Of a stretch of DNA of 64,000 nt, positions 2,599 to 60,239 are shown one piece after another. Source of the DNA: a virus (Duplodnaviria; Caudoviricetes); the IMG/VR virus record IMGVR_UViG_3300032257_000006, positions 14,953-78,952 of that record; one strand, 5' to 3'. Position 1 is the stretch's first letter. Every line of letters begins with the position of its first letter. Under the pieces are notes generated by a model. The model saw nothing but the letters and a program-made list of their open reading frames with translations. It made no database searches and had not been told where the DNA came from. Made by a program: the position numbers and the translations under genes.

Positions 2599-2614
2599 TT
2601 CGGACATGTCCGAA
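2599..2614. repeat. 16-bp palindrome copy 1, TTCGGACATGTCCGAA
   Basis: Between the stop at 2617 and the RBS of the next gene. Confidence 0.95.
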
Positions 2615-2616
2615 AG

Positions 2617-2877
2617 TTACTTTGCAACTAATTTGTACTGATTGTGTCTTGTGTTGTAGGTGTAAATCAGTTTCGATTTGTCACTAAAGACACAGGTATA
2701 TTTTACGCATTTTCCGCGGTCTGTATACAGGCTCTTAATTTCCTTAGGCGTCTCATTTACGGTGTCTGAAAAGTCTAACCGTTTACCCCACTTTGTGGTT
2801 CCGTAGCCGTCTTTCATAGACAGTTGAACACAATCTGCGGCTAGTATTGCTTTTCGTAACTCTGCTGCTTTAGTCAT
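2617..2877 (-). CDS. hypothetical protein
   Basis: 86-aa ORF with GGAG RBS; its stop abuts palindrome copy 1. Confidence 0.75.
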   Translation of the reverse strand: MTKAAELRKAILAADCVQLSMKDGYGTTKWGKRLDFSDTVNETPKEIKSLYTDRGKCVKYTCVFSDKSKLIYTYNTRHNQYKLVAK

Positions 2878-2892
2878 TCTAAATTCTCCAAA

Positions 2893-3159
2893 TTAAATAC
2901 AATGTCGTTCTCTAAGTTCTTCTTCGGTGTACTCTCCTTTATAGTAGTTACACCATTTACATCCCCGTTGGTGAGGAAAATACCAACCATCGCATGTACA
3001 TTTTACCCGTCTCGCATACTCTCTCCTCTCTTTTTCTACACAGTGTAAATTAGCACCGCATGCTTTACATTTAGGCTCCTTTACATATAGGTGTTTAGCC
3101 TTATTTAAAGTAACCCGCATCCTACATTTTTTACTATTGCACCTATACCGGTTAGGCAT
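2893..3159 (-). CDS. Cys/His-rich zinc-binding hypothetical protein
   Basis: CNSKKC, CKAC and CTC...HQRGCKWC motifs. Confidence 0.7.
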   Translation of the reverse strand: MPNRYRCNSKKCRMRVTLNKAKHLYVKEPKCKACGANLHCVEKERREYARRVKCTCDGWYFPHQRGCKWCNYYKGEYTEEELRERHCI

Positions 3160-3160
3160 A

Positions 3161-3631
3161 TTAGCTCCAAGTATTTAACGGGGCACATACTCCAAACATT
3201 TCGTACTCGTGATTTACATTCAAACTAGTATCAACACCTAAACTGAACAATAAATAATGAATCATCTCATGCTCAAGGATTGTAGTACGTTCAAGTCGTA
3301 AGATTTCAGCGAGTTCTACTACAATGATCCTGTCGTACTCGTAAGTGACGCCAGCCGCAGTACCTCTATTAAGGTCTTCAACTACTACAATGTGTGGGCC
3401 TTTACTTACTGACAAACCGGTGCAAGCTTGTACTCTATCCCAAGCATTTACAAACCAGCTTATATCTAACTGCTCTTCGGTGTGAAATTTTACAGTAATG
3501 CCTGTCCGAGCATCTCCTATGTCATAGTCACCGCTAGTAAATCCAGAACCGTAGTCACCATTAATATCGCAACCGGAAAGCGCCACTGACGCTAGTATAA
3601 AAAATCCTACTAATAAGATTGTCTGTTTCAT
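3161..3631 (-). CDS. putative lipoprotein with zincin (HExxH) motif
   Basis: Basic N-terminus, hydrophobic signal and lipobox LSGC; LEHEMIH metal-binding motif. Confidence 0.65.
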   Translation of the reverse strand: MKQTILLVGFFILASVALSGCDINGDYGSGFTSGDYDIGDARTGITVKFHTEEQLDISWFVNAWDRVQACTGLSVSKGPHIVVVEDLNRGTAAGVTYEYDRIIVVELAEILRLERTTILEHEMIHYLLFSLGVDTSLNVNHEYEMFGVCAPLNTWS

Positions 3632-3831
3632 TACTCTTCCTCTGTTAGCTCTACACTTAATAATTTAGCCAGTCTCTCTACTGCGTCAATACTTGAGTTT
3701 ACTGAATGATTATCAGGCACCCAATCCCCATCACCTAATAAATTAAAATCAGTCCTTAGGTTTGACAGTAGTTCAGTAATTTCCTGCCGGCTCTCTTTGT
3801 CGTACCTATGTACGTTAGTTGCCAGTGCCAT
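3631..3831 (-). CDS. hypothetical protein
   Basis: 66-aa ORF coupled to its neighbours. Confidence 0.65.
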   Translation of the reverse strand: MALATNVHRYDKESRQEITELLSNLRTDFNLLGDGDWVPDNHSVNSSIDAVERLAKLLSVELTEEE

Positions 3832-4165
3832 TTTCTGTATCCTCTTGCATGCTATGCATTATACCGTCCACTGAATCCCAACCTTGTAAATAACGTTTTA
3901 CGTAGTCGGTACTTTTACCTTCTTTGATAAGTGCAAGTTTTGCTAACTCTCGCTTATCTTTATTTTCTACGCCATACAAAACCAGACCGTCTAAAATTCC
4001 GGCCAGATAGTCTGTGACCATGTCGTCAGTTATCTTTCTCTTTGCCCCTGTAATTGCCTTAGCTACAAGATCAACTTCAGCTCCCCACAACGACCAACTA
4101 AAATCAATCTGCATGTCATCGTTAACTATTAGACTTGGGTGTCTAGTATTTTCATGAGCCATCAT
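3815..4165 (-). CDS. hypothetical protein
   Basis: 116-aa ORF with GGAGG RBS. Confidence 0.7.
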   Translation of the reverse strand: MMAHENTRHPSLIVNDDMQIDFSWSLWGAEVDLVAKAITGAKRKITDDMVTDYLAGILDGLVLYGVENKDKRELAKLALIKEGKSTDYVKRYLQGWDSVDGIMHSMQEDTENGTGN

Positions 4166-4178
4166 AATGTCCTCCAGA

Positions 4179-4406
4179 TTAGTTTAAGTCATCCATATAA
4201 TTTAAGTTGTCTGACCTTCTTATATGTACACCCCAAGTATTTATATAAATAAACTCCCAACCGTCTGGGAGAGTATAGTTACCAGAATGGTCGTAGTTGT
4301 AACCTTTGTACGGCCACTTATCTCCGTAACCATTCTTCAACCGTCTTTGGGATTGCTCGCATTGAGCTTCTGTAAGTTCGATAGTTTCACCCATCATCAT
4401 CTCCAC
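4179..4406 (-). CDS. hypothetical protein
   Basis: 75-aa ORF; the true start may be the ATG at 4394. Confidence 0.65.
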   Translation of the reverse strand: MEMMMGETIELTEAQCEQSQRRLKNGYGDKWPYKGYNYDHSGNYTLPDGWEFIYINTWGVHIRRSDNLNYMDDLN

Positions 4407-4494
4407 AATTAAACATAATTAATACAGTCACTACTACACCTACAGTAAGGCAGCAGAACACCATTATTCCCATTACAAATTGAACCTCTGTCAT
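4387..4494 (-). CDS. small single-TM protein (35 aa, below track cutoff)
   Basis: MTEVQFVMGIMVFCCLTVGVVVTVLIMFNCGDDDG; ATGA overlap with the 4491 stop. Confidence 0.6.
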   Translation of the reverse strand: MTEVQFVMGIMVFCCLTVGVVVTVLIMFNCGDDDG

Positions 4495-4796
4495 ACTCGT
4501 ATAGGCTCTTCGAACACATACTCAATAGCAGACTGACGGAAACCATAAACAACCTCTTCATGATGTACTGACTTGAAGTACTCTACGTAACCATCTTCAC
4601 GCATTGCCATATGCTCATCGTAACCAAGGTTACGTTCAATCTCTTCCAACTGGTCACGATTTACATTAGATAAAAAGCGTGCCCGAGTTATCTCAGTTCG
4701 TTTATCTATGAGATCGACAAGGCCGCCCTCTACATGTACATCGTCTGGGTTCCAATTAACACAGTCGCTGTAAAAATCTAATCGTTTATTTGGCAT
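4491..4796 (-). CDS. hypothetical protein
   Basis: 101-aa ORF with AGGAGAA RBS directly after palindrome copy 2. Confidence 0.75.
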   Translation of the reverse strand: MPNKRLDFYSDCVNWNPDDVHVEGGLVDLIDKRTEITRARFLSNVNRDQLEEIERNLGYDEHMAMREDGYVEYFKSVHHEEVVYGFRQSAIEYVFEEPIRV

Positions 4797-4814
4797 CTAA
4801 GTTCTCCTGAAATG

Positions 4815-4830
4815 TTCGGACATGTCCGAA
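4815..4830. repeat. 16-bp palindrome copy 2, TTCGGACATGTCCGAA
   Basis: Between the tRNA-like 3' end and the next RBS. Confidence 0.95.
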
Positions 4831-4840
4831 AGTTAATTAG

Positions 4841-4958
4841 AGCTGAGAGCTGGACTCGAACCAACGACCTCCACCTTAATAGGGTGGCGCTCTTCCCGTA
4901 GTGAGATACAGTCTTAGCAACAGTCTCACCTATTACCTCGCCTCTGAGCTATCCCAGC
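4841..4958 (-). tRNA. atypical tRNA-like gene: anticodon ATT, 53-nt D-loop, no encoded CCA
   Basis: Acceptor GCTGGGA/TCTCAGC; TA; D-stem GCTC/GAGC around a 53-nt loop; anticodon arm CCACC-CTATTAA-GGTGG (ATT at 4878-4880); variable loop AGGTC; T arm GTTGG-TTCGAGT-CCAGC. Confidence 0.85.
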
Positions 4959-4977
4959 TCTAATTAACCTTATATTA

Positions 4978-5121
4978 CTACTCTTATACAAGAACACTCT
5001 TTGAGATTATACCCCTCCCAAGGGGAACCTGCCTCGTTTTACAGAGTGGGAATACAGGTGAGTGCTCTTATATAAAAATAGTAGAAGTGGGAAGGATCAT
5101 CACCACAATAGATCCTCCCAC
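4978..5121 (-). ncRNA. candidate structured non-coding RNA upstream of the tRNA-like gene
   Basis: 16-bp helix 4984-4999/5060-5075 whose two mismatches are G-U pairs only on the minus strand; internal hairpins; separate 11-bp hairpin 5087-5121; no ORF in the track. Confidence 0.5.
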
Positions 5122-5205
5122 CAAGCTATGACTGGTGTGATTTGGGCACCGCCCATTACGTAACTACATTGTCCTATCCTCCAGTTAAGGTTTAGTATTT
5201 AAAAA

Positions 5206-5529
5206 TTACAGTGCTTGATTAGTTAGTCTAGCATACTCAATTGCGTTTTCGGTTTCACCTGTATCCACAAACTCTTTGAGAGCAAGTTTAGGCATGTTAC
5301 GCGGGCCACGAGGCCGGCCCCTGTTGTGTGCAGAAAATATTCTTTCCTTCTTACATTGGTCTATAAGATTATGCAGCCGCTCAACAGATGGTATCAGTTT
5401 ATAAGTAATTTTTAAGGCTCCAGGAAGTTTTATATATACCCAGTCACCTTCATGATTTCCACTTTCAATAGCATCGATGGCGAGCAGTACTCGTAGCTCG
5501 AACTCTTGAAATAATTGTTTAGCTGACAC
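5206..5529 (-). CDS. hypothetical protein with an AT-hook-like RGRPRGP motif
   Basis: 107 aa, GTG start, AGGAGG RBS adjacent to palindrome copy 3. Confidence 0.7.
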   Translation of the reverse strand: MSAKQLFQEFELRVLLAIDAIESGNHEGDWVYIKLPGALKITYKLIPSVERLHNLIDQCKKERIFSAHNRGRPRGPRNMPKLALKEFVDTGETENAIEYARLTNQAL

Positions 5530-5538
5530 AATTCCTCC

Positions 5539-5554
5539 TTAGGACTTGTCCGAA
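5539..5554. repeat. 16-bp palindrome copy 3, TTAGGACTTGTCCGAA
   Basis: Between the stop at 5558 and AGGAGG. Confidence 0.9.
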
Positions 5555-5557
5555 AGT

Positions 5558-6130: not shown

Positions 6131-6161
6131 AATAATTCTCGCTTTTAATTTTCAATTTAGT

Positions 6162-6380: not shown

Positions 6381-6389
6381 AATTTTCTC

Positions 6390-7184: not shown

Positions 7185-7188
7185 AATC

Positions 7189-7563
7189 TTATCGTCCTGA
7201 GTTACCTACGTTAGTTACTGCCTCTGCAAAATTTTCTAAACTCTCCAAAGCCTCTACTGGTGCGAATCTATTCTGTCCACCAGAGTAATCCTTACGGCCG
7301 TTACACGATCTGAACAATATCTCGCTGCCACTTCCTGCCAGTGGTTCGGATACTTGCACATACACCTTTTCAGTGTGTAACGTGACCTCACCAGATACGG
7401 CAATGCCGCCCTTATTAACGCTCAGGTCATACTGCCACTTGTCCAACCCCATCGCCTTAGCTAGGTTACGTAACGCCTTTTTACATTCAACATGAAACGT
7501 AGCTTTGTTCCTTTCGTTGTAGCAAATTTGCGACTTCATTATTAACGATAATTTTTTACTCAT
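7189..7563 (-). CDS. conserved hypothetical protein of mobile elements
   Basis: NKGGIAVSGEVTLH and FRSCNGRKDYSGGQN motifs; start refined to ATG at 7563 behind AGGAGAA. Confidence 0.75.
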   Translation of the reverse strand: MSKKLSLIMKSQICYNERNKATFHVECKKALRNLAKAMGLDKWQYDLSVNKGGIAVSGEVTLHTEKVYVQVSEPLAGSGSEILFRSCNGRKDYSGGQNRFAPVEALESLENFAEAVTNVGNSGR

Positions 7564-7583
7564 TTTAAAATTCTCCTGAAATA

Positions 7584-7599
7584 TTCGGACATGTCCGAG
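7584..7599. repeat. 16-bp palindrome copy 4, TTCGGACATGTCCGAG
   Basis: Upstream of the RBS of the 7563 gene. Confidence 0.9.
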
Positions 7600-7640
7600 A
7601 ATAAAAGGGCAGTACCTCAAGGGCTAGGTACTACCAAACA

Positions 7641-7795: not shown

Positions 7796-8386
7796 TTAAC
7801 TTTTGTAAAGGAAGTGAGTTCCGCCGTCATAGGCTTCCCAATAGTATCCACGCTCTTCTACAAATTTATTTAATTGGTTGTGTACCATCATGGTATACAT
7901 AGTTTCGTCTGGGTCTGTCTCCCACGCATCATTACTAAATGCTTGCATACCCTCGATGTAGCTACCTTCGCCAGACCACACAAGTCTCCTTTGGCTATTA
8001 TCAAACTCACCGCCGTCCTTAAACCAACAGCCTGGAAACGCTAATTTTAGTTCGCCCAAGATTTTCTTCTTCTCTTCCATAAAGTCTTGTTCAATAAGTC
8101 CGTCAGCTTCTACCATTTGCTCAGAGCTAACAGCTGGAACTATAAAATCAACTGGCGTCATTCTTAATGTCATTGTGTTACTAACTTGTGTACTTTCGCA
8201 CAGTTCAATAATTTCCTTAAGCGTTTCTATGTAGGTAGAAGCGTCTTCAAAATTATCTCTATACTCAGGGTCGTTAGTTAGCATAAATTCTACTGCCGTA
8301 ATTTTACGGCTTTCAATTTTCTTATCTAGTCTAAGTTTAATCGTTGTCAGTAACTTAGTCTTGTAAGCTGTCTCTTGGCTACTCAT
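7796..8386 (-). CDS. hypothetical protein
   Basis: 196-aa ORF with RBS beside palindrome copy 5. Confidence 0.8.
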   Translation of the reverse strand: MSSQETAYKTKLLTTIKLRLDKKIESRKITAVEFMLTNDPEYRDNFEDASTYIETLKEIIELCESTQVSNTMTLRMTPVDFIVPAVSSEQMVEADGLIEQDFMEEKKKILGELKLAFPGCWFKDGGEFDNSQRRLVWSGEGSYIEGMQAFSNDAWETDPDETMYTMMVHNQLNKFVEERGYYWEAYDGGTHFLYKS

Positions 8387-8397: not shown

Positions 8398-8413
8398 TTC
8401 GGACATGTCCGAA
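8398..8413. repeat. 16-bp palindrome copy 5, TTCGGACATGTCCGAA
   Basis: Between the stop at 8416 and the next RBS. Confidence 0.95.
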
Positions 8414-8415
8414 TG

Positions 8416-9386: not shown

Positions 9387-9402
9387 TTCGGACATGTCCT
9401 AA
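9387..9402. repeat. 16-bp palindrome copy 6, TTCGGACATGTCCTAA
   Basis: Overlaps the TAG stop at 9399. Confidence 0.9.
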
Positions 9403-9623
9403 AGTCCCAAAACCTTTCTAGCTTTCTCATCCGACATTATATGGTCGTACATACTGTTACACATACGTTGTCTCAAGTTGCCGCACTTAGGCTCGCTATC
9501 AACATCATAGCCATTCATTAATAAATAAAACTCAGCCAACGCGGCCTCAGTCTTAAGCGTAATAGTGACAGGTTGAAACTCTTTAGCCTGTTCTACTCTA
9601 AAATCTAAATATGTGTCAGCCAT
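9399..9623 (-). CDS. hypothetical protein
   Basis: 74 aa; its TAG stop lies inside palindrome copy 6. Confidence 0.7.
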   Translation of the reverse strand: MADTYLDFRVEQAKEFQPVTITLKTEAALAEFYLLMNGYDVDSEPKCGNLRQRMCNSMYDHIMSDEKARKVLGL

Positions 9624-10261: not shown

Positions 10262-10277
10262 TTCGGACTTGTCCGAA
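10262..10277. repeat. 16-bp palindrome copy 7, TTCGGACTTGTCCGAA
   Basis: Between the stop at 10281 and the next RBS. Confidence 0.95.
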
Positions 10278-10814: not shown

Positions 10815-10830
10815 TTCGGACAAGTCCTAA
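10815..10830. repeat. 16-bp palindrome copy 8, TTCGGACAAGTCCTAA
   Basis: Overlaps the TAG stop at 10827. Confidence 0.9.
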
Positions 10831-11330
10831 AGATTTTCATACCAATCCATGTATGTAGACTTAAGCTCCGCATCGTTATGCAAATTTTCAACCATCTCCT
10901 CTACATTCTCACAGAGATACATGATACGGATAGCGGCCCCAGTTGGTGTATTGTCAGTACGCTCCCAATCAACACCAAACAGAAAAGAAAATTGTGCGTC
11001 CGTTAAAGCAAATGTATCTTCACAATATTGAAACCAAAAGAACACTGCCATATCCTTACTCATATGATCTTTAGTAAATTCCAATCCTTTAACAAATGGC
11101 GCATGCCCTAAAGCACAACCAATAGTCCCACAATTATCTAATGATCTAAACGGCACCCCCTCCAACAAACGTCCATCAGGTTTCCTAGTTATCTGACCGT
11201 AATCAGTTGCAGCATCAACTTCATGCGCAGCATCAACTTCATGCGCTCTATATTCACGCATATCAAATTCTTCTTGTGTTACGTTGTGCATTAAATGTTG
11301 TGCTAATAATAATAAATTTTCTTTAATCAT
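10827..11330 (-). CDS. conserved phage hypothetical protein
   Basis: FDM..Y, CGTIGCALGHAP and DNTPTGAAIRI motifs; contains an 18-bp tandem duplication. Confidence 0.8.
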   Translation of the reverse strand: MIKENLLLLAQHLMHNVTQEEFDMREYRAHEVDAAHEVDAATDYGQITRKPDGRLLEGVPFRSLDNCGTIGCALGHAPFVKGLEFTKDHMSKDMAVFFWFQYCEDTFALTDAQFSFLFGVDWERTDNTPTGAAIRIMYLCENVEEMVENLHNDAELKSTYMDWYENL

Positions 11331-11645: not shown

Positions 11646-11661
11646 TTAGGACTTGTCCGAA
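11646..11661. repeat. 16-bp palindrome copy 9, TTAGGACTTGTCCGAA
   Basis: Between the stop at 11674 and the next RBS. Confidence 0.9.
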
Positions 11662-11862: not shown

Positions 11863-11883
11863 AAGGTCTCCAGTGTAATAAGT

Positions 11884-12540
11884 GAATCTGTTTTAAATGT
11901 AAACAAACAGATTTAGTTATCACACTGAAAGTAAGTACTAGCTGCCAGTGTACCTAACATCATTTGTAATGCGCTGAGCTTAGCTCCTTTGCGTTGTTAC
12001 AAGTGTTAGCCAGTGACTGACCCTTACTTTCAATGTAGTCACTCCTCAGACCTTTTCGGTCTAACCATAAATTACCTGCGTTGCATTATCATGTCTTACG
12101 TGCTGCACATTAAGCCAATGGGTTCCAAGTCAGTTAGTTTGCTCAGGTGTTAGTCCTATCTAGAGCCGTTGTATTATTTGAACAGCTCTCGGACATGTCC
12201 GAAAAAACTCTAACCAGTTACCGCTTATATACTCAGGGTCTTACAGTTGGTTACGAATCGCGGGTAGCAATTCATATATAGTAACCAATCAAGCCAGCAC
12301 TGCTTGCAACGATCACACTCTGTGATCCGTACAGTTCTCTACAGTAATTTGTCGAGTGAGGTCTCGGCTTGTCAGGCCGAGCACCATTTAATCTAGTTGT
12401 TAATTAGCACGTCTCTAGGACTTGCACCGGCTTGGGGCCGCTGCCGCGTTTACTCATCACCTGTACAATCTGTGATGCCTTTAGTAAGGGTCAGTTAACA
12501 TATACGTTAACAACCTGGCCCTTAGTGAAAGCTTCACTCA
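11884..12540. ncRNA. hairpin- and pseudoknot-rich non-coding region, candidate structured RNA(s)
   Basis: No ORF of 60 aa or more over ~830 bp; at least 8 inverted repeats, including a 10-bp and a 7-bp helix that interleave. Confidence 0.45.
12188..12203. repeat. 16-bp palindrome copy 10, CTCGGACATGTCCGAA
   Basis: Within the non-coding hairpin region. Confidence 0.9.
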
Positions 12541-12624
12541 AATACAATGCTGATGACCATCAAGGCCAGTTCAACCCAAATTAGCTCTAACATGTCGTTC
12601 TCCATAAATGCTTCTAAAATATCT

Positions 12625-12640
12625 CTCGGACAAGTCCGAA
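12625..12640. repeat. 16-bp palindrome copy 11, CTCGGACAAGTCCGAA
   Basis: Within the non-coding region. Confidence 0.9.
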
Positions 12641-13166: not shown

Positions 13167-13182
13167 TTAGGACAAGTCCGAA
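13167..13182. repeat. 16-bp palindrome copy 12, TTAGGACAAGTCCGAA
   Basis: About 40 bp downstream of the -10 box of the consensus promoter. Confidence 0.9.
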
Positions 13183-13223
13183 AGTTTTACTGCTTCGGAC
13201 GCTTTCCTCCATTTCTAGGTACC

Positions 13224-13252
13224 ATTATACACCTATTATTAGGATATGTCAA
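13224..13252 (-). promoter_or_regulatory. consensus sigma70 promoter driving the leftward early operon
   Basis: Minus strand TTGACA (13247-13252), 17-bp spacer, TATAAT (13224-13229). Confidence 0.9.
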
Positions 13253-13260
13253 TACCTCAG

Positions 13261-14245
13261 TATTAGAGTATTGGAGTATTAAGGTTTGAATGTGTTTGTA
13301 CAGTTTTTGTGTTTTTGAGTGGTTTGTATAGTCAGGTCGTCACCTTAAAATATTAGCGTATTAGAGTATTTAGGCTTATTTTATTTGATATGCATGAGGT
13401 GTGCCAGAATTCTGTTTACACGTTTCCGTTCATCTCTTTTATTGATGGTGATGACTAACGGTAACGTGTCCTCTTTTTGGTTTAATATGTCCGCGATAAT
13501 ATTAGAGTATCTATGTATGCCCTGTTTTTTAGGTGGCGGTGGTATTTTAGGTTTTGTGTGGCGTCCTTATAGTATCGGTGATTGTGTGAGGTGTACCTGT
13601 GTGGCGGTTTCAACGCGGCCCCCGTATTTTTGAGGGTTCGTTTTCCTCCTTTACATTAAAAAACGTTTTTCAAAAAACACCTAGTCTCAGACAAATAATA
13701 TTAGAGTAACCCTATATTACACAGTAATTTTTTAAAGAAGCCGAAAAAGAAGACCCTATGTCGCTAAAAAGTTGTTTGTCAGAACGCGGGGGCTTGTTCC
13801 GAAATTTAGCTGATTTGGAAGTCTACCCCCCTTCACCTAGGGCGAGCTAAATGCCCAATGTAGGATACACCCTTACTTATATATAATAATAAAAAAAATA
13901 ATTTAATATTATATATATAGACATGCTGCGCATGCTGTGAGAACTGTAGATAGCCCTGAAAGCCCGCCACAGCAGCCTCTCAGCCCTCTGGGGCCGCGTC
14001 CTTACTTACAACCCATTGTGCTAACTGTTTGATTTACTTAGATATTTAAAATGGCGAGATCTGCCAGACTGGGGCCGCGGCCCTAATTTTATTCACGGCC
14101 AGGTTTTGCTCAGGGATTTTAATCTTACGGTTACACTGGGGCGGCGATGTGGAAGTGAACGCGGCCCTAATAAAAGTTAAAAAGGATTTTTCCTTAGGGG
14201 ATTTCCAATTAACCATTATTAAAAAATATATATAGGGCGGCGGCG
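13261..14245. other. non-coding origin/terminus-like region
   Basis: Four TATTAGAGTA direct repeats (13261, 13359, 13500, 13699); 43-nt pure A/T tract 13877-13919; repeated CTGGGGC(C/G)GCG and GCGGCCCTAAT motifs 13988-14171. Confidence 0.5.
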
Positions 14246-14264
14246 AAAATCACAAAATCCAGAC

Positions 14265-14296
14265 GTCAAAAAGCCCGCTTTAAAAAGCAGGCTTTA
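14265..14296 (-). terminator. intrinsic terminator
   Basis: Minus strand AAAGCCTGCTTT-TT-AAAGCGGGCTTT followed by a T run. Confidence 0.75.
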
Positions 14297-14309: not shown

Positions 14310-14325
14310 TTCGGATAAGTCCGAA
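14310..14325. repeat. 16-bp palindrome copy 13, TTCGGATAAGTCCGAA
   Basis: Between the stop at 14329 and the terminator. Confidence 0.85.
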
Positions 14326-15323: not shown

Positions 15324-15339
15324 TTCGGATAAGTCCGAA
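15324..15339. repeat. 16-bp palindrome copy 14, TTCGGATAAGTCCGAA
   Basis: In the divergent early/late intergenic region. Confidence 0.85.
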
Positions 15340-15693
15340 AGAATAAACGGGAGCGGGGACGGGGACGGCGGACGCGGTGCGGACGTGGTGCGGTGTGCTG
15401 GTGTGGGCAGGAAGTATGCCAAGTTTTATATATACGATAAAAGGTAGAAGAAAATAAAAAGGCGTGCCCCGTACTACCTTTTTTAAGCGCGACAGCCTGG
15501 AAAATCCTTATATAGTGCTTGTGTGAAAAATTTTTAAAATTTGAGAATTTAGGCCCGCGTTGACAAACAAACCCCACAAGACTAAATTACCACCTACCAG
15601 TTTTGGATTTCTCTTAACTACTAGGCCGGCGGTTACCTACGGACAGCCGACCTGAGAGAGATCCACTTTTAATTAAGCCAAAAGGCCTTAGCA

Positions 15694-23786: not shown

Positions 23787-23821
23787 GTTAAATAGGCCCA
23801 ACCATCAAAGGCCTATTTAAC
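23787..23821. terminator. 12-bp perfect stem-loop upstream of the portal gene
   Basis: GTTAAATAGGCC-11 nt-GGCCTATTTAAC. Confidence 0.45.
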
Positions 23822-45827: not shown

Positions 45828-48800
45828 TGCCTGCTCAGTTTATAAGTGGTGAACAAGTAACAGGTAGTGCGTATGTTGTACCAGCAGGCACAGACCGCCA
45901 GATGTTATACATGGTTACCGGCGAGAACAGTGGTTTTGCCAGTGTACTAACCAATGTAACTTATGGTGGTCAGGCGATGACCCCTATAATTTCTGATGTC
46001 ATTGATGGTAATCAACTTTGGGTTCACGTCTTCATGTTAAATGAAGCCGGTATAGTCGCAGCGACTGACACTAGCTTTATTGAGACTTGGAGTTCAGGTA
46101 CCGTAACGGACACAACATTTGCTTGTACCCTTTCTGGCGTACACCAAGGTGCTCCGATAAATGCACAGTCACTAACCACCCACCTATCAAACGACCCTGT
46201 AAAACCAACCGTATCAGTCGGTGATAATGGATTACTGTTTGAGTTAGTCGGCTCTGGCGGAACCGTAACCAACTGGACGTGGACTAATTTTATAGAAAGA
46301 GTTCGCGATGCTAACTCTGGAAAAGACTTTGCGATAGCTACTCAAGAAGTTGTTACTAGTGGTCTAATACAGACAGAATTTGATGACGGTATTATTGCTA
46401 GGTCATACCTAGCGGCAATTGCATTTAATGAGGCGAATCTAAATCCATACGTAACAAATTTTGTTGGAGCAGGGTCAGGTGCAGATAGTATATATCTAGG
46501 CGAACTAGGTTTACTATCAGGTGCGAACTTTGAAGGGACTCGAAATTCTGGCGTTGTAATACTTAGCCCTACAACCGACATCAATGATGTAAACGCCTAC
46601 ACCGTAACGACATACTCAGGTTGGACAGATGGCAGTATATTCTTCATGCCATCAGCAGACGCTAATTTAAAAATAGGAACACTGTATGCGTTTGTAAGAA
46701 ATAACAGTGGGTTAGAAAGTGCTGCTTTACCTATTACGTTGCTGCCAAAACAGCTTAAAGCATCTAATACTATACAAAGCATTAGTCCACTTGGTATATA
46801 TAAAGATATAACTGGTATAGAGCTTGGTGCTGATATTGTAGAGTACGATACAGTATCTTCAGGCGGTGGAACTGTTACCGTATTGTTGTCTGGTATTGCA
46901 GAGATAGCTTATAGCAGCACTGTACCTGACTCAGATACATTCGGTTTCAGAATATTTGACGACTCACTATATGAATATACTGCAATCAGTACTGCAACTG
47001 TACAGAACGCTGACAAGACAGGCTCAGGTACTATTGCGGCTCAAGATGCTATATCTTCAGGTTCCGGCGAAAGATCAGTTACAGGCTCAGGTACTATTGC
47101 GGCTCAAGATGCTATCTCTTCGGGTTCCGGCGAAAGATCCGTTACAGGTTCAGGCGCAGTTACAGCAGAAGACAGCACAGTTATTGGCCAAGCAGGTCTC
47201 GGCCCACACATAGCCGCATCAAACGGCAGTCCGCCTGCTGTATTTTTTGAAGAAGAGTTCATATTCTGGACGCTGATATACACTACATACAGCATAAACG
47301 ATGGAACTCCTAGTATTGATTTTATAGGTAGTGATCTACCTGCCGGATTAAATAATACCCAAGTCTCTAACAATATAGCAGCATGGCAAGGTACACCATC
47401 TCAAGGAAGTTCAGGGGATTATACTTATAAATCAACAATGACCACTGAATACGGTGTAGTCAGTAATGAGTTCACCGTACAGGTAAGAAAACGCGTTACA
47501 GGCACAGGCGTTGTTGCAGCAGACGAGTCTACAGTTTATGGGTCTGGTACGCTTACCGTAACTGGACCAGGTACAGCCGAAGCTCAAGAATCTAATGTAG
47601 CAGGCGCAGGTTTTATTGCACACACTGGTTCAGGTTCAGCAGATTCTCAGCCATCAATCGTAGATGGCGCATCTGTAAGTGAATATACCTATACTGCTGA
47701 CAATACAAATTACACTGCAATAGTTGCAGGTGCTACTTCTAGTGAAGTAGTTGGTTTAGAAGCTGGTATATATACTGGTGGTTTAGCTGTACCTAGTGGC
47801 GTAACTGTTAAGGCAATAGATGGTTTAGGTAGCGTTTATTTCACGCAAGGCTCAGTCGGAATATCAGGCAGTAACGGCATAATACTTTTAGAAAATACTG
47901 GATCAACTGTAGATGGAATTATAGCGCATACACCAACAGACGATAATTCACACGGTATTATGATTACTGGTGATGGCAATTCACTTTTAAATTGTATTGG
48001 ATACAACGGTGGAAATGCTGTACATAAAATACCATGCTTTGTTAGTGGTAATAATAATTTAGTTGAAGATTCAGGATTCTTCGGTGTAGGTCGTTACTCA
48101 TTCCAAATATTTACAGCAACAGGGAATACAATTAGACGCGTTATAGCTAGATGGGATTCTACAGTTATAAATAATCTAACCCAACCAAATGCTACGTTTT
48201 CTAATTACAATGCAAATAGCACTACGTGGGAAAATTGTGTTGCAATAGACTACAACGCTACACCGGATGAAATGAATTATGGTGGTTGCTTCTACTCACC
48301 ACACAACCAAGGCGTTTGGCCTATTGGTAACAGGGACAATGGTTGGTATGGTTGTATAGTTGCGCACCACGATAGAACTAATGACGCACTACCATTGGGT
48401 GAGAACAACCAAGGGTTTAGATCTGATACAACCAACCCAACAAATTTATGTGTGGATAATGTTGTTAGAGATTTTTATGTACGTGATACTTTGCGTGACA
48501 TTCAAATATATCCATATACACAATATGAATTTACAGATGTTACAAGAGTAGATGTCGATAACATAACCGCCGATGGTACATTTGGTGATGGTGGCCGCTC
48601 TAGTATGACGGCTGGGTCTGGTGCAGATATTGACGTCCAATATATAGATGGCGTAAAAACTGCTACACCACTATGGCCGTTCAAAAATGAAGACATAATA
48701 AAAGCAGAAATGCTAAACATTGCTGACGGCAATCGTGGATGGGCTGCATCTAATGACACCTTAGAAGAATATGTAAAGGGAACTGGCTCAACCATTTCTA

Positions 48801-55078: not shown

Positions 55079-57249
55079 TGCATACTCCCCAAATCAATTA
55101 CATTTCCAGCTGACAGCTCTTCAAGATCAGAGTGCGTGCTGTATATGATCTGCATACCGGTGCCCATTAATGTGCTCACCAACCGTGCAGAGTTTTCTTC
55201 GGACATGTCCGAACTTGGTTCATCTAAAACCATGAACGAACTACTTCCATACAATGCCTTAGCAAGACCTAATCTCACACCAACACCCATAAATGCTTTC
55301 TGTGCGCCAGATGCACATGTTACGGAACGGTCAACACCATTCTCTAAGAACCTGAACTTACCCTTAGGGTCGCGTATAATTCCTTCGATCTCATCGCTAG
55401 TGCATGTTTTGCAGAAGGTCGATGCGTAACTCAGAATGCGGTCCCAGATTGACTTCAAGAAGCGTGAACGTGAATCACGCAAGTACGAAACCAATGCTTT
55501 AGCATTAGCCTGGTCAGTACGATCCCTGCGTAGTTTAATGTTGCTCGTGTCAGCAGCTTCAATGGTATTATTCGATGCTGCTATATTCCTCTCGATCATT
55601 GGAAGTTCAACAGTCTTCATCGGTGTAACACTGGCATTGTCAGTATTGATAGTTAAAATTAAATCACTGTGAGATTTTTCAAGTTTAACTATCGCAGCCG
55701 CTTTATCAGTAGTATCACATTCTACTTTCTTATATTCAGCAATGGCCAACTCCGCCGCCGTTCTATCTGCTACCGCTTTGTCGTAGTCTTTCTTAGCGTT
55801 GTTGTAACGAGCAACTTCTGCATCAGCGGTATACTTCTTACTGGTTAGATCAGAGAGCTCTACTTCCATGCGTTTTATATCAACTGCCGCTGCACGTAAA
55901 TCAGAATCTGAAGCCAGATCCAGTGCTATAAGCGCATCTACTTCTGCTTTGAAGTTAGCAATGGTCTGCTCAACATTCACATTTACTGGTGGATTGTTTT
56001 CCACGTCAGCTAGTGCACGTCTGGCATCGTTCAAATGATCCTGACAGTCTTCCAGATTAAGTGACATTGTTGCTTGCTGGCCGGACAGTTCTTTAAGTTC
56101 TGCTTCTTGCTGCTCTTTGTGATTGTCTGCTCCATCGAATGGACGTTTACAGGTTAGGCAAACTGAATTGTCCAGCGCCCCCATGATGACTGCCATCTTT
56201 TCGGTGATTGAATTACGCTTAGCTTCCTCAGTTGATTTAAGTTCTACTAAACCTTCAACCTCTGCCTTCAACAATTCAATCTCAACCTTCCACTTATTCT
56301 CCGTATCAAGTGCAGGGCCGGCGTTCACCTTCAGCCACTCATTAAGTACGACTAATCGCTCAGCGTTCTTAATTCCCAGAGCTAACTTAGATTTCCTGTG
56401 AGGGATTTCATTAGACAGCTCGGTGATCTGTGCCGTGTAAGCAGTAGCAGGTTCCGGTACTTCTTTTACTGCATCTGCCAGCATACGAATAGCAGTCAGT
56501 GCAGCTTCTAGTTTAAGTTCCTCGGCCTGCTTATTTTCAGTGGCCATTTGTATTTTAGCCAGCTCAGAGACCTTAATGTTTAGGTCATCATTTATAGTTT
56601 TAGCGGCCATCTTGTTACTGACTATCGCATTGTCCAGCGCTTCAATCTGCAGAAGCACATAAGCCTTTCGGTCTTCACTGGCCTTAAGTTCAGCCTTCAT
56701 CTCTTTAGTGTCGATAAGTGTCGCACCTTCAAGCCGACCTTTGAACATTGTGACATCAGTGTTCGCTAGCTTAATTACTTTATCGATAATAGTTACATCA
56801 GCAATTACCTCTACCATCTTTTGAAGTTCAGCAGCACCGATTGTAAGTAAGCCCGCGGTCTCACCCTGATCTGAAAAGTGAAGCATGTTGTAATTAGCAA
56901 CAGAGATACCAAACAAATCATCAAGATATGAATTGCATGCAGTGTGGCCAGTGGCAACCGGCTTACCTTCGCCGCCCTTTGCATAGATATTACAGTCAGC
57001 CAGTGAGCGAGTGATTCTATGATCTCCAATCTCTATACCAACGTCACACTTGCCAGTAGAGTCCCAAGTTTGTACATCATCTTTACTGCCTGGTATTCCT
57101 TGGATACCTTGCAGTGCAAACTTAATACTGTTTAGTGTAGAAGATTTGCCAGCCCAGTTAGGGCCGCGTAGAACATTAAGACCTGCACCAAACTCAAAGT
57201 TTTTAGTGCCGATCTTTTTGAAATTTTGCGTACGCAATTCAGATAACAT
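55075..57249 (-). CDS. sbcC: SbcC/Rad50-like SMC ATPase (recombination nuclease subunit)
   Basis: Walker A GPNWAGKSS, coiled coil with CLTC zinc hook, signature SGAQK, Walker B VLDEP, H-loop THS. Confidence 0.93.
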   Translation of the reverse strand: MLSELRTQNFKKIGTKNFEFGAGLNVLRGPNWAGKSSTLNSIKFALQGIQGIPGSKDDVQTWDSTGKCDVGIEIGDHRITRSLADCNIYAKGGEGKPVATGHTACNSYLDDLFGISVANYNMLHFSDQGETAGLLTIGAAELQKMVEVIADVTIIDKVIKLANTDVTMFKGRLEGATLIDTKEMKAELKASEDRKAYVLLQIEALDNAIVSNKMAAKTINDDLNIKVSELAKIQMATENKQAEELKLEAALTAIRMLADAVKEVPEPATAYTAQITELSNEIPHRKSKLALGIKNAERLVVLNEWLKVNAGPALDTENKWKVEIELLKAEVEGLVELKSTEEAKRNSITEKMAVIMGALDNSVCLTCKRPFDGADNHKEQQEAELKELSGQQATMSLNLEDCQDHLNDARRALADVENNPPVNVNVEQTIANFKAEVDALIALDLASDSDLRAAAVDIKRMEVELSDLTSKKYTADAEVARYNNAKKDYDKAVADRTAAELAIAEYKKVECDTTDKAAAIVKLEKSHSDLILTINTDNASVTPMKTVELPMIERNIAASNNTIEAADTSNIKLRRDRTDQANAKALVSYLRDSRSRFLKSIWDRILSYASTFCKTCTSDEIEGIIRDPKGKFRFLENGVDRSVTCASGAQKAFMGVGVRLGLAKALYGSSSFMVLDEPSSDMSEENSARLVSTLMGTGMQIIYSTHSDLEELSAGNVIDLGSMQ
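55198..55213. repeat. 16-bp palindrome copy 15, TTCGGACATGTCCGAA
   Basis: Perfect copy inside the sbcC coding sequence (S-D-M-S-E). Confidence 0.85.
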
Positions 57250-57261
57250 GGTCGTCCACTC

Positions 57262-57474: not shown

Positions 57475-57476
57475 AT

Positions 57477-58544
57477 CTATTCTCCAAGTTTTTCTAAGTA
57501 GTGTTCCCACGTTGCTTGCATAACTTTGTCGTCTTTCAACTCTTCAGTTATATGTGCTGGTAGGTTGTCAATTTCAGTCAATCCTATCTCTTCAACATCA
57601 TCTGTCTCGATAGGGCGTAACCCATTGCGTACCATTAAAGCCTGTGGATTCGCGGCCCAAACCTTCACAATGAAGTCAGCAACTCCAGCGTATTCATCTA
57701 CAGGCAGTACGCCGGTAACGTCGATGAATTGTGCTGTAGTCTTGAGGTCATCATCATTGCTAGGGAGTTTGTTGAATGACAGCGTTGCTAGGCCCTCATC
57801 TTTGCTCCAGATCCGTTCTTTTTCTATTTCATTGTCTTGGTTTATATACCAGACAAATTTATCACCTATATCAGAGAACGAAGTAGGGTGTGTGTTGCCA
57901 ACCAAAACTAATCGATCATCTTTAAGCATACGTGATTCGTGCTCGTGACCAATGAATACATAGTCAAAACGATCCAGTAATTGATCAGCTACTTCAGACG
58001 TGAGGTTTAATGAAATCTCATTGTCTGCATACCCGCACTCGTAATTACAATGCATGATTACAATCTCAAGCATGCCGTCGTTAGCCGGTTCTTTTATAAG
58101 CTCCTGAATCGTTTCATCAAACAGATCCTGGCTTGATTGGTGCGGGACAGAAAACACAAGGCCGTCATCGCCAAAACTATTCACGGCGTGAAATGTCTTA
58201 CCAACCAGTGGAACCACTACACTACTGTCTGCCAGCAATATTTCACTTACTACAGCCAGTGAGGACAAAGTACCTTCTCTGTTAGGTACATCGTGGTTGC
58301 CGCCTAGTACTAAGTTACAGTGTCTTGCGACTTGAGCACCTTGCATGATAGTCATCTCATCATTGTGAGATGTATCAAACAAGTCACCAAGGCAGAGTAC
58401 GTTGTCTGACTTCATCATCGTAGCTGCGTCCCAAGCTGCCGTATTAAGTGCGTCTTTCAACGCGGCCCTACTACTGTTAGTAGTATGAGCGCGTCTGTTT
58501 AATCCAATGTGTGGATCTGAAAACATTCCGAATTTATGCTTCAT
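57477..58544 (-). CDS. sbcD: SbcD/Mre11-like metallophosphoesterase nuclease
   Basis: SDPHIG, LGDLFD, GGNHD and GHEH motifs. Confidence 0.92.
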   Translation of the reverse strand: MKHKFGMFSDPHIGLNRRAHTTNSSRAALKDALNTAAWDAATMMKSDNVLCLGDLFDTSHNDEMTIMQGAQVARHCNLVLGGNHDVPNREGTLSSLAVVSEILLADSSVVVPLVGKTFHAVNSFGDDGLVFSVPHQSSQDLFDETIQELIKEPANDGMLEIVIMHCNYECGYADNEISLNLTSEVADQLLDRFDYVFIGHEHESRMLKDDRLVLVGNTHPTSFSDIGDKFVWYINQDNEIEKERIWSKDEGLATLSFNKLPSNDDDLKTTAQFIDVTGVLPVDEYAGVADFIVKVWAANPQALMVRNGLRPIETDDVEEIGLTEIDNLPAHITEELKDDKVMQATWEHYLEKLGE

Positions 58545-58753
58545 GATTGTTTACCTAAAAAGTAGGGTTGGTATTTTATTACATCAACTGCAATCTCTTT
58601 TCTTACTTCAGTTGAGATGTGTGGATTATGGTAGAGCCGCCAATCGTGCACATGCCATAGAGATTGTCGCTTCACTGGATATGGTGGTATACCTAACTTA
58701 GGGAGCAACCTGAATTTGATAAAACCTCTGATCGTATAGCGTGGCTTAGTCAC
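58541..58753 (-). CDS. hypothetical protein
   Basis: 70 aa, overlapping both neighbours. Confidence 0.55.
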   Translation of the reverse strand: MTKPRYTIRGFIKFRLLPKLGIPPYPVKRQSLWHVHDWRLYHNPHISTEVRKEIAVDVIKYQPYFLGKQS

Positions 58754-59891
58754 CGATAAACTCCTTAAAATATCTAGCCACCGGATGAAATGGAATCCCG
58801 TCTGGCGTTAGGTTAGGGTAAGTAATATTTAGTAACTGCCCAATGTACTTAGCTTTATCTATAAGGATTAATTCTTTATTAGCATAAGTACCTGGCGCAG
58901 TGACTGTAAACGGCTGGCCGTTGTCCGTTCGCAAATGGAGAATGCCTACACGGTAAGTAGTCTCAACACCTGTAACGCCATCGACTTGGATATACGGTTC
59001 GCCTTCTGTTATATCCATTACGATAAACTCAGCGTCTAACTCTGCTTTAAGTTTCAGCAGATTGTTAGAGCGTGCGCCGACTTCGTAACCACCGTCACCC
59101 AGCCTTAGCATGCCGCCCTCGTATCCTCTAGATACAAAGTCGTCGAACCACTTCCAGCATTCTTCCAGCGATGTAACAGGGTGGCGTTCAATAGGTACAA
59201 GTACACCGGAAGTATCATCGCAGTGAAATCTATCGACGAATCTTTCTTGATATGACTTATCAACTGAGAACGAATCATAAACATAATATTTTATTGAGTC
59301 ACTTTCTGGTTGCTGCTTCTTAACCAGCGATGCAATTTCCTGAAGTGTTAGGTTGTGGTTGTAAAGTTCGCCATCAAGATACTCACCAACCTCCAGCGTA
59401 TCCATAAGTTCTTCATGCATATGATCTAACGTCTGTATCCTCTTGCCTTCTTTGGAGTACTGTAAAATTCCCTCTTTCGTCCGCACCGTCGTACATCGGT
59501 GGCCATCCAGTTTTGGTGAGGTTTCTGCGAAACCTGAGAAGTCGAGGTTCTTAATTTTTTCAATGCGTTTAGCAAGCATCGGGAGCGGGTGTCCGAGTTG
59601 ATTCGTATGGAACGGGCCAACCTGCTCAATGCTGTGCTTGTATCCACCATCAAGCTGGCCATTGCTCTCACTGCGAGCCTCATTCTGAGCCTGTGTAAAC
59701 GGCGTTGTCTCGTTAGATTTTCCAAGGTTCTTCCCTTTCTTAATTACTTTAAGTTTAATGATCGGCTTACCGTCAAGTTTCTTAGAAAAGGTACGAGTAA
59801 TAACGCCGTGACCTTCTTCGTTTTCGTGTACTTCTATTTGCCAGTAACCCATGCCTGAATTACTGCGCTTAAATAATTTTAATGTATCCAA
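58746..59891 (-). CDS. ATP-dependent DNA ligase
   Basis: PMLA, SPKLDGHR (KxDG), LDGELY, YVYD, EGGMLR and LLKLK motifs; start refined to TTG at 59891 behind AGGAG. Confidence 0.93.
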   Translation of the reverse strand: MDTLKLFKRSNSGMGYWQIEVHENEEGHGVITRTFSKKLDGKPIIKLKVIKKGKNLGKSNETTPFTQAQNEARSESNGQLDGGYKHSIEQVGPFHTNQLGHPLPMLAKRIEKIKNLDFSGFAETSPKLDGHRCTTVRTKEGILQYSKEGKRIQTLDHMHEELMDTLEVGEYLDGELYNHNLTLQEIASLVKKQQPESDSIKYYVYDSFSVDKSYQERFVDRFHCDDTSGVLVPIERHPVTSLEECWKWFDDFVSRGYEGGMLRLGDGGYEVGARSNNLLKLKAELDAEFIVMDITEGEPYIQVDGVTGVETTYRVGILHLRTDNGQPFTVTAPGTYANKELILIDKAKYIGQLLNITYPNLTPDGIPFHPVARYFKEFIGD

Positions 59892-59902
59892 TTTAAATTC
59901 TC

Positions 59903-60205
59903 CTAAGCCATACAGTCGCTCATTCCGCACACAGAGAACTGTGAAGGATGTGAACGCCATTGTTGTCCTGCTGTTTTAGCAGATTCAATTACCTGCTTAC
60001 GCAGTTGATCTACAATGATCGGGTGAGCTATAAATTTATTGCCAGCTAACTTGTAGCAAGTCGGTTGCTTAGGTAAGGCATGTACTGCCCAGCTATCAAA
60101 CTTCTCTACCCACTCATCACCCATCAACTCTTTTGTAAATTCAGTAAGTTCATACGGCCCTAAACATTGGGCGCTTTCTATTACGTCTATTGCACCTATG
60201 CGCAT
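59903..60205 (-). CDS. hypothetical protein
   Basis: 100 aa; AGGAGAA RBS beside palindrome copy 16. Confidence 0.7.
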   Translation of the reverse strand: MRIGAIDVIESAQCLGPYELTEFTKELMGDEWVEKFDSWAVHALPKQPTCYKLAGNKFIAHPIIVDQLRKQVIESAKTAGQQWRSHPSQFSVCGMSDCMA

Positions 60206-60223
60206 TTTAATTCTCCTAAAATA

Positions 60224-60239
60224 TTCGGACTTGTCCGAA
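60224..60239. repeat. 16-bp palindrome copy 16, TTCGGACTTGTCCGAA
   Basis: Between the stop at 60242 and AGGAGAA; same flanks as copy 4. Confidence 0.95.

Follow-up and report, generated by a model that had tools for sequence, protein, structure and literature searches.

What is the role of a short palindrome that recurs at gene junctions along one arm of a phage genome? The palindrome in question has two 7-bp arms of the form TTnGGAC, in which arm position 3 is free, around a 2-bp centre. It occurs in a stretch of 64,000 nt (hereafter the window) that corresponds to bases 14953-78952 of the 78,952-bp viral record IMGVR_UViG_3300032257_000006. This record is estimated to be 95% complete, and we will refer to the phage, which is marine and uncultured, as G0. 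We propose that the 16-bp palindromes are duplex-DNA sites for a dimeric protein, probably encoded by the phage, that would control transcription of the early and replication genes. We would give this proposal, which is based on sequence comparisons, about an even chance of being correct.

The gene for DNA polymerase A (PolA) runs over both ends of the G0 record, so the record is circularly permuted. The leftward-transcribed arm, which contains the early and replication genes, extends from about 15.4 kb in the window down to window position 1, continues via genome position 1, and wraps around to window 64000-52200. This arm accounts for 53.6% of the genome.

Pattern searches with the core GGAYWWGTCC found exactly 16 copies of the palindrome in the window, at the same starting positions as in the initial annotation of this DNA and with the spacing that it gave for the first 15.4 kb (437-2216 bp). 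(The invariance of the core follows from its use in finding the sites.) Shuffled sequences have far fewer copies: 0.47 copies of the core were expected, or 0.16 copies of the 16-mer if as many as 3 mismatches are allowed, and the observed count was never reached. The initial annotation had seen no copies in the structural block, and we found none in the 36-kb rightward block (window 15.7-52 kb), even at 3 mismatches. It had also called for scans of the full genome, of related phages, and of candidate hosts. The first of these found two more copies outside the window, at genome positions 3902 and 14406, and all 18 copies are in the leftward arm (p = 1.4e-5). Isolated half-sites are not enriched (3 observed versus about 10 expected).

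Sixteen of the 18 copies are intergenic or overlap nothing but a stop codon, as compared to an intergenic share of 10.6% for the arm (p = 1.4e-12, computed on a conservative count of 15). The usual layout on the minus strand is a stop codon, 0-5 nt, the palindrome, 0-20 nt, a Shine-Dalgarno (SD) sequence, and the start codon. About half of the copies are within a module of about 40 bp, AACT-TTCGGACWWGTCCGAA-yATTTyAGGAGAAtTT-ATG. That most copies lie between a stop codon and an SD sequence, as first reported, is confirmed, with 12 of the 18 sites at 0-20 nt before the SD. The description of the sites as marking early-gene junctions was correct about the junctions but too narrow about the genes: three copies are among replication and repair genes, and two are inside genes (genome 3902, in a conserved 114-aa gene, and window 55198, in the gene for an SbcC-like ATPase). 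On the sense strand, the centre is AT at 8 sites, AA at 4, and TT at 6.

G0 appears to be lytic and to rely on the host's RNA polymerase, because we did not detect an RNA polymerase or an integrase among its ~110 proteins or in six-frame searches (for the integrase family PF00589, there were zero matches in six frames). The same searches did not detect any ParB/KorB, helix-turn-helix (HTH), ribbon-helix-helix (RHH), or PadR proteins. The virion genes (large terminase or TerL, portal, S49 protease, capsid, tail tube, and tape-measure protein) indicate a long-tailed phage. Besides about 50 small proteins of no known function, the leftward arm encodes two DNA methyltransferases, an AEP-type primase, an SNF2 helicase, PolA with both 5'-3' and 3'-5' exonuclease domains, an RNase T-like exonuclease, enzymes of nucleotide metabolism (dCTP deaminase, dNMP kinase, MazG, and thymidylate synthase), an ATP-dependent ligase, an SbcCD-like pair, and a resolvase. 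We found no near-identical phage records, and the closest cultured relatives are the Vibrio phages SHOU24, 264E42.1, K120, and K478b, whose TerL proteins are 37-39% identical to that of G0. Among these, 264E42.1 and K120 grow on Vibrio crassostreae, and SHOU24 grows on V. parahaemolyticus.

Versions of the palindrome in related phages

The scan of related phages was informative. IMGVR_UViG_3300032212_000003 (L026; hereafter G1) is a 75.6-kb genome with 127-bp terminal repeats that is collinear with G0, with protein identities of 50-85%. G1 has about 25 copies of the G0 motif, all in its leftward arm, and the first copy is just inside the terminal repeat. In six of the 25, as in TTCGGAC-AAT-GTCCGAA, the centre is 3 bp long; the G0 orthologue of one such site (window 12625) has a centre of 2 bp. 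The in-gene copy at genome 3902 is also kept in G1 (at 48310), far from any start codon. A more distant phage, G2 (L028), is represented by a 30.9-kb fragment whose TerL is only 38% identical. G2 has three exact copies of the 16-mer at the start of its early region, but its early genes (7.9 kb) do not encode any protein with a homologue in G0 or G1.

None of the four cultured Vibrio phages has a copy of the G0 motif. They have a palindrome of their own, TTTGGTC-TSA-GACCAAA (motif B), with 13 copies in SHOU24, 38 in 264E42.1, 39 in K120, and 36 in K478b. These copies are placed as in G0: behind stop codons, before ribosome-binding sites (RBSs), and with one near the genome end. Some of them share a terminator's T-tract. 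A -35-like TTGGTC-N18-TATAAA promoter is overlapped by one site that is orthologous in SHOU24 and 264E42.1. A survey of 2.9 million viral contigs found multiple copies of motif B only in the SHOU24-like phage family.

We sought further palindromes upstream of the terminase gene in IMG/VR loci that were anchored by TerL. ACCTGTA-WW-TACAGGT is present in 12 copies in each of two relatives with 61% GC content. TAGGTGTAAC-WW-GTTACACCTA has 10 copies in another relative, again 5-10 nt before AGGAG. Other lineages have AGTTCTGTATATACAGAACT, AACCCTATGGCATAGGGTT, AGTTGTTGCCGCGGCAACAA, or AACTCCAACSGTTGGAGTT. Altogether, the TerL-related phages have eight or more distinct palindromes that are built in the same way, and at least six of these are from uncultured relatives and differ from the motif of G0. 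One complete relative, G9, has no such palindrome family.

Because each of these lineages has its own version, the palindrome is a trait of the family, as judged from these genomes, and is not peculiar to G0. It is uniform within a genome yet differs between lineages, as expected if a specific reader co-evolves with its sites. Motif identity also cuts across the TerL tree. G2 and L194 share the 16-mer of G0, yet they fall in the opposite half of the tree and neighbour L199, whose palindrome is different. Either a reader that is encoded outside of the G2 fragment was exchanged, with conversion of the sites, or G0, G1, and G2 share a host factor. A literature search turned up nothing on the G0 motif, on the Vibrio-type motif, or on the SHOU24 repeats.

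Some other repeats came up during these searches. Directly behind the first early gene of G2 is a microsatellite-like (GCGTGC)n array (L028:4540-4640). Next come two terminator-like hairpins in tandem; the palindrome forms the upper stem of one, and a symmetric variant forms that of the other. The 82.7-kb genome of G6, another relative, has arrays of CCGCC-N3-GGCGG-type repeats at both ends (L243 1-200 and the end of L247; 10 copies), which are probably terminal repeat structures. Most single matches to the 16-mer in other viruses are coincidences of coding (SDMSE) in prophage-like contigs of about 41 kb. L010, an unrelated viral contig with 38% GC content, contains the full 16-mer and three further ATGTCCGAA(TTT) repeats (L010:8450-8580). 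These repeats open a gene that resembles a small terminase and encode Met-Ser-Glu repeats around a TATAAT box; they may be a packaging-site or operator repeat, and they are unrelated to the SHOU24-like family.

How the palindrome may be read

If the palindrome functioned as an RNA hairpin, then changes in one arm should be matched by changes in the other. We compared the two arms across 39 sites with the G0 motif (motif A; from G0, G1, and G2), 53 sites with motif B, and 24 and 10 sites with two other motifs (C and D). At position 3:14 of motif A, 24 of the 39 sites can pair, versus 24.2 expected if the arms are independent; the other 15 are mismatches, with no G-U pairs, so that 38% of the sites have a mismatch in the middle of the stem. 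The composition at position 3 is alike in both arms (C31/A6/G1/T1 and C29/A7/G2/T1). Pairing at the variable positions of the other motifs is also near the expected values or below them (24 versus 29.3 for B, 11 versus 11.8 and 8 versus 10.4 for C, and 7 versus 6.0 for D). None of the four motifs shows the covariation, or the G-U pairs at a variable mid-stem position, that would mark a structured RNA. Folding predictions give weak RNA hairpins, of -5.5 kcal/mol for a perfect copy and -1.6 kcal/mol for the five variants at position 3, and the flanks are A/T-rich and roughly symmetric (AAcT ... AgTT). Also, the site nearest the probable genome end (site 1, window 15324) seems to lie outside all sense transcripts. 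The independence of the arms, the weak hairpins, site 1, and the conserved in-gene copy together favour a symmetric dimer that recognises two half-sites in duplex DNA.

We infer that a dimeric sequence-specific protein would read two TTnGGAC half-sites that are 9-10 bp apart, centre to centre. This reader would most likely be encoded by the phage and belong to a family that is not recognisable by sequence. It would occupy the gene junctions along the entire arm that is transcribed by the host RNA polymerase, as well as the gap by the genome end, but not the structural arm. By analogy to the stoperators of mycobacteriophages (see below), its most likely job would be arm-wide control of transcription. 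RNA polymerase would be blocked or paused during elongation, and promoters would be occluded at a few of the sites. Early and middle genes would thereby be expressed in stages or turned off. In favour of this proposal, the sites' enrichment and placement are far beyond chance; a site lies at +35 to +50 of the sole consensus promoter; and site 1 is kept in G0 and G1, with comparable sites near the ends of G2 and 264E42.1.

Several observations weigh against a symmetric dimer on duplex DNA. A spacer of 2 or 3 bp at orthologous sites would be awkward for a rigid dimer. The centre base on the sense strand is usually C in K120 (26:5) and 264E42.1 (22:7), which a symmetric dimer does not explain, although there is no such bias in SHOU24 (3:7) or in G0 (AA 4 : TT 6). 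One flank position has excess pairing (18 versus 11, p = 0.004, uncorrected). The G2 copies are at the tops of terminator-like hairpins (CCCCC...GGGGG-T7), and these include a symmetric double variant, TTCCGACATGTCGGAA. The sites abut stop codons and RBSs, and the 40-bp module of stop codon, palindrome, and RBS has been copied among junctions. They are often close to terminators as well: 17 terminator-like hairpins are within 30 nt of a site, versus 3.8 expected from genome coverage. This association is only suggestive, because sites and terminators are both intergenic features. Finally, no binding protein can be named in G0: none of its ~110 proteins has an HTH, RHH, ParB, or PadR match. The last point agrees with the initial annotation, which had not recognised any repressor in the window. 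As for its preference for a dimeric protein over an RNA hairpin, this is supported by the lack of covariation in four families, the equal degeneracy of the arms, the weak hairpins, and site 1, but not by the variable spacer, the centre bias of K120 and 264E42.1, or the adjacency to terminators and RBSs. Its statement that half-site variants never form compensatory pairs was right in that there is no covariation, but both arms of one G1 site carry the variant, which is in line with chance.

Among the alternatives, the one that survives best is an RNA element, which we nevertheless consider unlikely. A small hairpin in the polycistronic early mRNA would be read by an RNA-binding protein or endoribonuclease, from the phage or the host, and would process, stabilise, or gate the cistrons. 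The RNase III sites of T7 and the targets of RegA and RegB in T4 are the relevant comparisons. Much of the layout is suggestive of such an element, as most sites begin 0-5 nt past a stop codon, 12 of 18 are 0-20 nt upstream of an SD, and the conserved 40-bp module takes in the RBS. Centres of 2 or 3 bp are tolerated at orthologous sites, as if they were loops; the centre is biased on the sense strand in K120 and 264E42.1; a tRNA-like gene and terminators are flanked by sites; and the G2 copies are set in larger terminator hairpins, with one symmetric double change. However, the covariation test goes against an RNA element in all four motif families: 38% of motif-A sites have a mid-stem mismatch and there is no preference for G-U. 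Nor would an RNA element predict weak hairpins or degeneracy that is symmetric in the DNA sense. Site 1 seems not to be transcribed, some sites precede terminators rather than genes, and at the conserved in-gene copies, cleavage or binding would hit coding mRNA.

Another explanation is that no reader is involved. The modules of stop codon, palindrome, and RBS could be micro-homologies for swapping small early genes between relatives that infect the same cell, as has been proposed for the PeSL cassettes of T4-type phages (see below), in which case their uniformity would be due to copying. Identities between the 40-bp modules are 85-93%, both from junction to junction and from G0 to G1, several junctions differ as to which flank of the orthologous gene bears the site, and non-homologous genes are interleaved with conserved ones. 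Copying of oriented modules would also account for the centre-base bias in K120. But we think that these recombination linkers are an improbable explanation, because the GGAC/GTCC core is strictly conserved while the RBS part varies, and because the identical 16-mer is found in G2, whose early genes are unrelated. Many sites are within blocks that are conserved on both sides between G0 and G1, and site 1, the conserved in-gene copies, and the terminator sites without a downstream gene would be left unexplained. Recombination at the modules is plausible as a by-product of sites that are kept for another reason.

We judge it similarly improbable that the palindrome is the operator of a DNA-binding protein from the host, on which phages of the same host have converged. 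This could explain why the same 16-mer is found in G0, G1, and the distant G2, why motif identity crosses the TerL tree even though G2 has no early protein in common with G0 or G1, and why no phage reader could be named. However, the scan of bacterial genomes found just scattered single matches to the 16-mer in unrelated taxa, with no pattern of taxon or locus (the host of G0 is itself not identified). The Vibrio-type motif is multi-copy only in the phage family, and a comparable factor would have to exist in every host lineage, each time with another specificity.

Hairpin promoters for a virion-delivered or other phage RNA polymerase (as in N4), or promoters for a phage-modified host polymerase, seem highly improbable: the stem and loop have dimensions like those of N4 early promoters, about half of the sites have a TAnnnT-like hexamer next to their left arm, and genes behind strong terminators leave no room for a sigma-70 promoter, but no large protein of G0, including one of 1815 aa, matches any RNA polymerase family (although a very divergent polymerase could escape), the tail module of G0 is that of an ordinary long-tailed phage and includes a tape-measure protein, a perfectly symmetric site would not specify a direction, the SD is often 0-1 nt past the palindrome, which leaves no leader, and the TAnnnT signal is confounded with TAA stop codons.

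Returning to a phage-encoded dimer, we looked for candidate readers. The product of the first early gene (227 aa) might have been an autoregulated reader, but it is an orphan whose only orthologue is in G1. We also set aside a 289-aa protein, the only universal protein of no known function in the arm, which is acidic (pI 4.3-5.2), has a disordered N-terminus, and resembles DUF5895/Pam3-gp34. A weak lead is P100, a 103-aa protein that is encoded just upstream of the primase gene (L005:8845-9156, minus strand, in genome coordinates, before the window). P100 belongs to a family of about 112 clusters, mostly of 70-140 aa, which has a conserved DY...YN...G...RRGL...D pattern and does not correspond to any Pfam family. 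Five palindrome-bearing genomes (G1, SHOU24, 264E42.1, G7, and G8) encode a homologue; G6, which also bears palindromes, does not, and neither does the palindrome-free G9. The high-confidence AlphaFold model of P100 (pLDDT 92.7) is a two-layer sandwich whose only structural neighbours are TusA-, IF3-C-, or Alba-like (Z up to 5.1).

In the Vibrio lineage, there is a more specific candidate. K120 encodes an annotated "transcriptional regulator" (gp52) that is a winged-helix protein of the PadR family (PF03551, 4e-08; L307:24282-24818), and PadR proteins are dimers that bind inverted repeats. The PadR-like protein is conserved in 264E42.1 and SHOU24 and is encoded inside the palindrome-rich arm. 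In all three phages, a palindrome is 37 nt upstream of its start codon; another lies at its stop codon. This arrangement speaks for our proposal, and the PadR-like protein is a candidate reader for the Vibrio lineage only. Because the gene is absent from G0, G1, G6, G7, and G9 (in six frames), it is not the reader of the whole family, which is a further point against our proposal.

More tentatively, the SHOU24-like family as a whole (genomes of about 75-87 kb from lytic, long-tailed phages of marine and soil environments) may have an arm-specific address system. Each lineage would have its own palindrome of 15-22 bp at early and replication junctions and at the genome end, and the readers would be fast-evolving and in part non-orthologous. 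Because G0/G1 and G2 carry the same 16-mer, pairs of readers and sites would be exchangeable between distant lineages. The reader in G0 would then have a fold or family that has not yet been linked to DNA binding. If such a system exists, it would be a general and undescribed way for lytic phages that lack their own RNA polymerase to stage transcription by the host's polymerase.

Comparison with known phage and plasmid systems

The initial annotation had compared the palindromes to the stoperators of mycobacteriophage L5 and to the sopC sites of N15, but two other systems fit better. The closest published analogue is in the Cluster O mycobacteriophages, such as Corndog, which has 34 copies of a 17-bp dyad repeat (TGTTCGG-N3-CCGAACA) that are denser in the leftward arm (PMC4351075). 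These phages are non-temperate, and the repeats have no meaningful orientation; about one third of the Corndog copies are in genes, and the repeats are reported not to mark the points of indels. Their function is not known, and the authors predicted a dimeric DNA-binding protein (PMC4351075). As in G0, the repeats have inverted arms of 7 bp around a centre of 2-3 bp that is often A/T, they are concentrated in the leftward non-structural arm and are mostly away from promoters, and there is no integrase. The sequence, the phage lineage, and the host are different (G0 is a phage of marine Gram-negatives, with SHOU24-like TerL kin). Also, in G0 just two of 18 copies are within genes, the sites are packed between stop codons and RBSs, there are none in the structural arm, and the motif diversifies between lineages.

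The other system is the SAS/ESAS elements of Cluster K (the TM4 group), in which an inverted repeat is directly upstream of a conserved motif that contains the RBS (PMC3203893). These elements are in the non-structural half and are specific to sub-lineages; their function is not known, and the reader may be from the host or the phage and may be RNA or protein (PMC3203893). The position of the inverted repeat before an RBS-containing sequence, the confinement to the non-structural half, and the variation of the consensus by sub-lineage are all shared with G0. However, the ESAS has imperfect arms of 17 bp and a variable spacer of 4-13 bp, as compared to arms of 7 bp and a spacer of 2-3 bp, and the SAS is defined by an asymmetric 13-mer that is 3-8 bp before start codons, while in G0 it is the palindrome, not the RBS, that is invariant. 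A conserved leader (yATTTyAGGAGAAtTT) follows about half of the sites in G0 and G1. Its information content, 0.2-0.5 bit per position, is below that of the palindrome, and one third of sites do not have it. Likewise, one third of the G0 copies do not have a start codon nearby.

Stoperators are asymmetric 13-mers that are oriented with transcription, are present on both arms, and are read by the monomeric immunity repressor of temperate phages. The L5 repressor gp71 is reported to block elongation at many intergenic sites (PMC9283540, PMC6550527). Judging by analogy, this would be the best precedent for the mechanism. G0 is similar in having many dispersed copies in short intergenic gaps, but its sites are palindromic, have no fixed orientation, and are on one arm, and it has no integrase or recognisable repressor.

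Two other systems share some features with G0. The promoter-early stem-loop (PeSL) cassettes of T4-type phages, reportedly described by Arbiol et al. in 2010, are said to lie at the junctions of small early genes and perhaps to mediate gene shuffling. They are likewise repeated regulatory modules at such junctions, but each contains a sigma-70 early promoter, while G0 has one consensus promoter in 16 kb. The KorB operators (OB) of plasmid RK2 are about a dozen 13-bp palindromes, at promoters and away from them, that are bound by one dimeric global regulator. They resemble the G0 sites in being palindromes that are dispersed over a mobile genome. Unlike KorB/ParB networks and N15 sopC, G0 does not have a protein from any ParB-, KorB-, or SopB-like Pfam family in either arm.

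What is new here is the phage family and host range, the confinement to one arm, the integration with stop codons and RBSs, and the diversification of the motif across the family. Dispersed dyad repeats have been noted for over 10 years in a few clusters of actinobacteriophages, without a function being found. The same kind of element is now seen in unrelated phages of marine Gram-negatives, in at least eight lineages that include four cultured Vibrio phages (13-39 copies), and the four independent motifs provide a statistical argument for reading on duplex DNA. The Vibrio phages, for which there is one named candidate reader (the PadR-like protein), make the question testable in a tractable host, by pull-down, electrophoretic mobility shift assay, chromatin immunoprecipitation, and transcript-end mapping with TTTGGTCTCAGACCAAA. 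If a reader controls transcription of the whole arm, this would explain the timing of early and middle genes in phages without their own RNA polymerase.

Individual sites and their surroundings

Site 1 (window 15324-15339) is in a divergent gap. A C/G-rich tract (15340-15400) borders it on one side, and on the other is the A/T-rich stretch that precedes the first early gene. Its counterparts are at 75446 in G1 and at 23803 in G2. In G1, site 1 is 171 bp from the right end and beside the 127-bp direct terminal repeat, with a comparable tract in between, so the physical end of G0 is probably near window 15.4-15.6 kb, where the C/G-rich tract extends over 15340-15520.

The site at 14310-14325, which is a GGATAAGTCC variant, is past the stop codon of the second early gene and about 20 nt before an intrinsic terminator (14265-14292, minus strand; hairpin of -11.2 kcal/mol and a T-tract). 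G1 has the same layout at 74377. Between this terminator of the first operon and the consensus promoter is about 1 kb without convincing genes (13260-14260, minus strand). It holds about five copies of a ATACTCTAATA-like word and several GGCCGCG words, and it may serve as an origin or in regulation.

The consensus sigma-70 promoter (TTGACA-17-TATAAT, at 13224-13252 on the minus strand) is the sole 12/12 match in the early region, and its surroundings are 81% identical in G1. Over the ~16 kb of the early region, promoter-like matches are not above shuffled controls (28 versus 37.2). The site at 13167-13182 is at about +35 to +50 of this promoter, and there is an extra isolated half-site at 13194-13200. 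The next site, at 12625-12640, has a 2-bp spacer, while its orthologue in G1 (73014) has a 3-bp spacer. It is followed by the site at 12188-12203, which is within a non-coding stretch of about 700 nt. This stretch (11870-12560) contains two palindrome sites and is 68% identical to G1 71819-72344. It may encode a structured RNA, but a search of Rfam did not give a credible match.

Further along the arm, the sites are packed tightly. At 11646-11661, one arm is TTAGGAC, and the SD follows immediately. At 10815-10830 and 9387-9402, the TTAGGAC arm provides the TAG stop codon of the upstream gene (10827-10829 for the gene at 10827-11330, and 9399-9401 for the gene at 9399-9623). In other words, a C-to-A change at arm position 3 creates the stop codon, so that the site is fitted closely into the coding layout. 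The site at 10262-10277, with AA as its sense-strand centre, is between a stop codon and an SD. A perfect palindrome at 8398-8413 has a TAA stop codon on one side and the SD of the gene at 7796-8386 on the other.

A strong intrinsic terminator (7608-7635, minus strand; hairpin of -15 kcal/mol and a U-tract) precedes the site at 7584-7599. This site has a change from T to C at the outer position of one arm, and it is 8 nt past the terminator and 20 nt before the ATG at 7563. At 5539-5554, where one arm is TTAGGAC, the GTG start codon (5529) is 9 nt away. The perfect palindrome at 4815-4830 is directly behind a tRNA-like gene and 18 nt before the ATG at 4796, and the corresponding site in G1 (62802) is also behind the 3' end of a tRNA-like gene. 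The tRNA-like gene (4849-4908, minus strand) scores 27.7 bits against the Rfam tRNA model, whose cut-off is 29, and ARAGORN does not find it. The last site in this part of the arm, TTCGGACATGTCCGAA at 2599-2614, is 2 nt past a TAA stop codon and 18 nt before the ATG at 2580. It is part of the module AACT-site-CATTTCAGGAGAATTTTC-ATG, and its orthologue in G1 is at 58915.

The remaining two sites in the window are beyond the wrap-around. The site at 60224-60239 is between a TAA stop codon and the SD of a gene that is similar to Holliday-junction resolvases (60242-60742). The copy inside the gene for the SbcC-like ATPase (55198-55213) is a perfect palindrome and encodes SSDMSEE.

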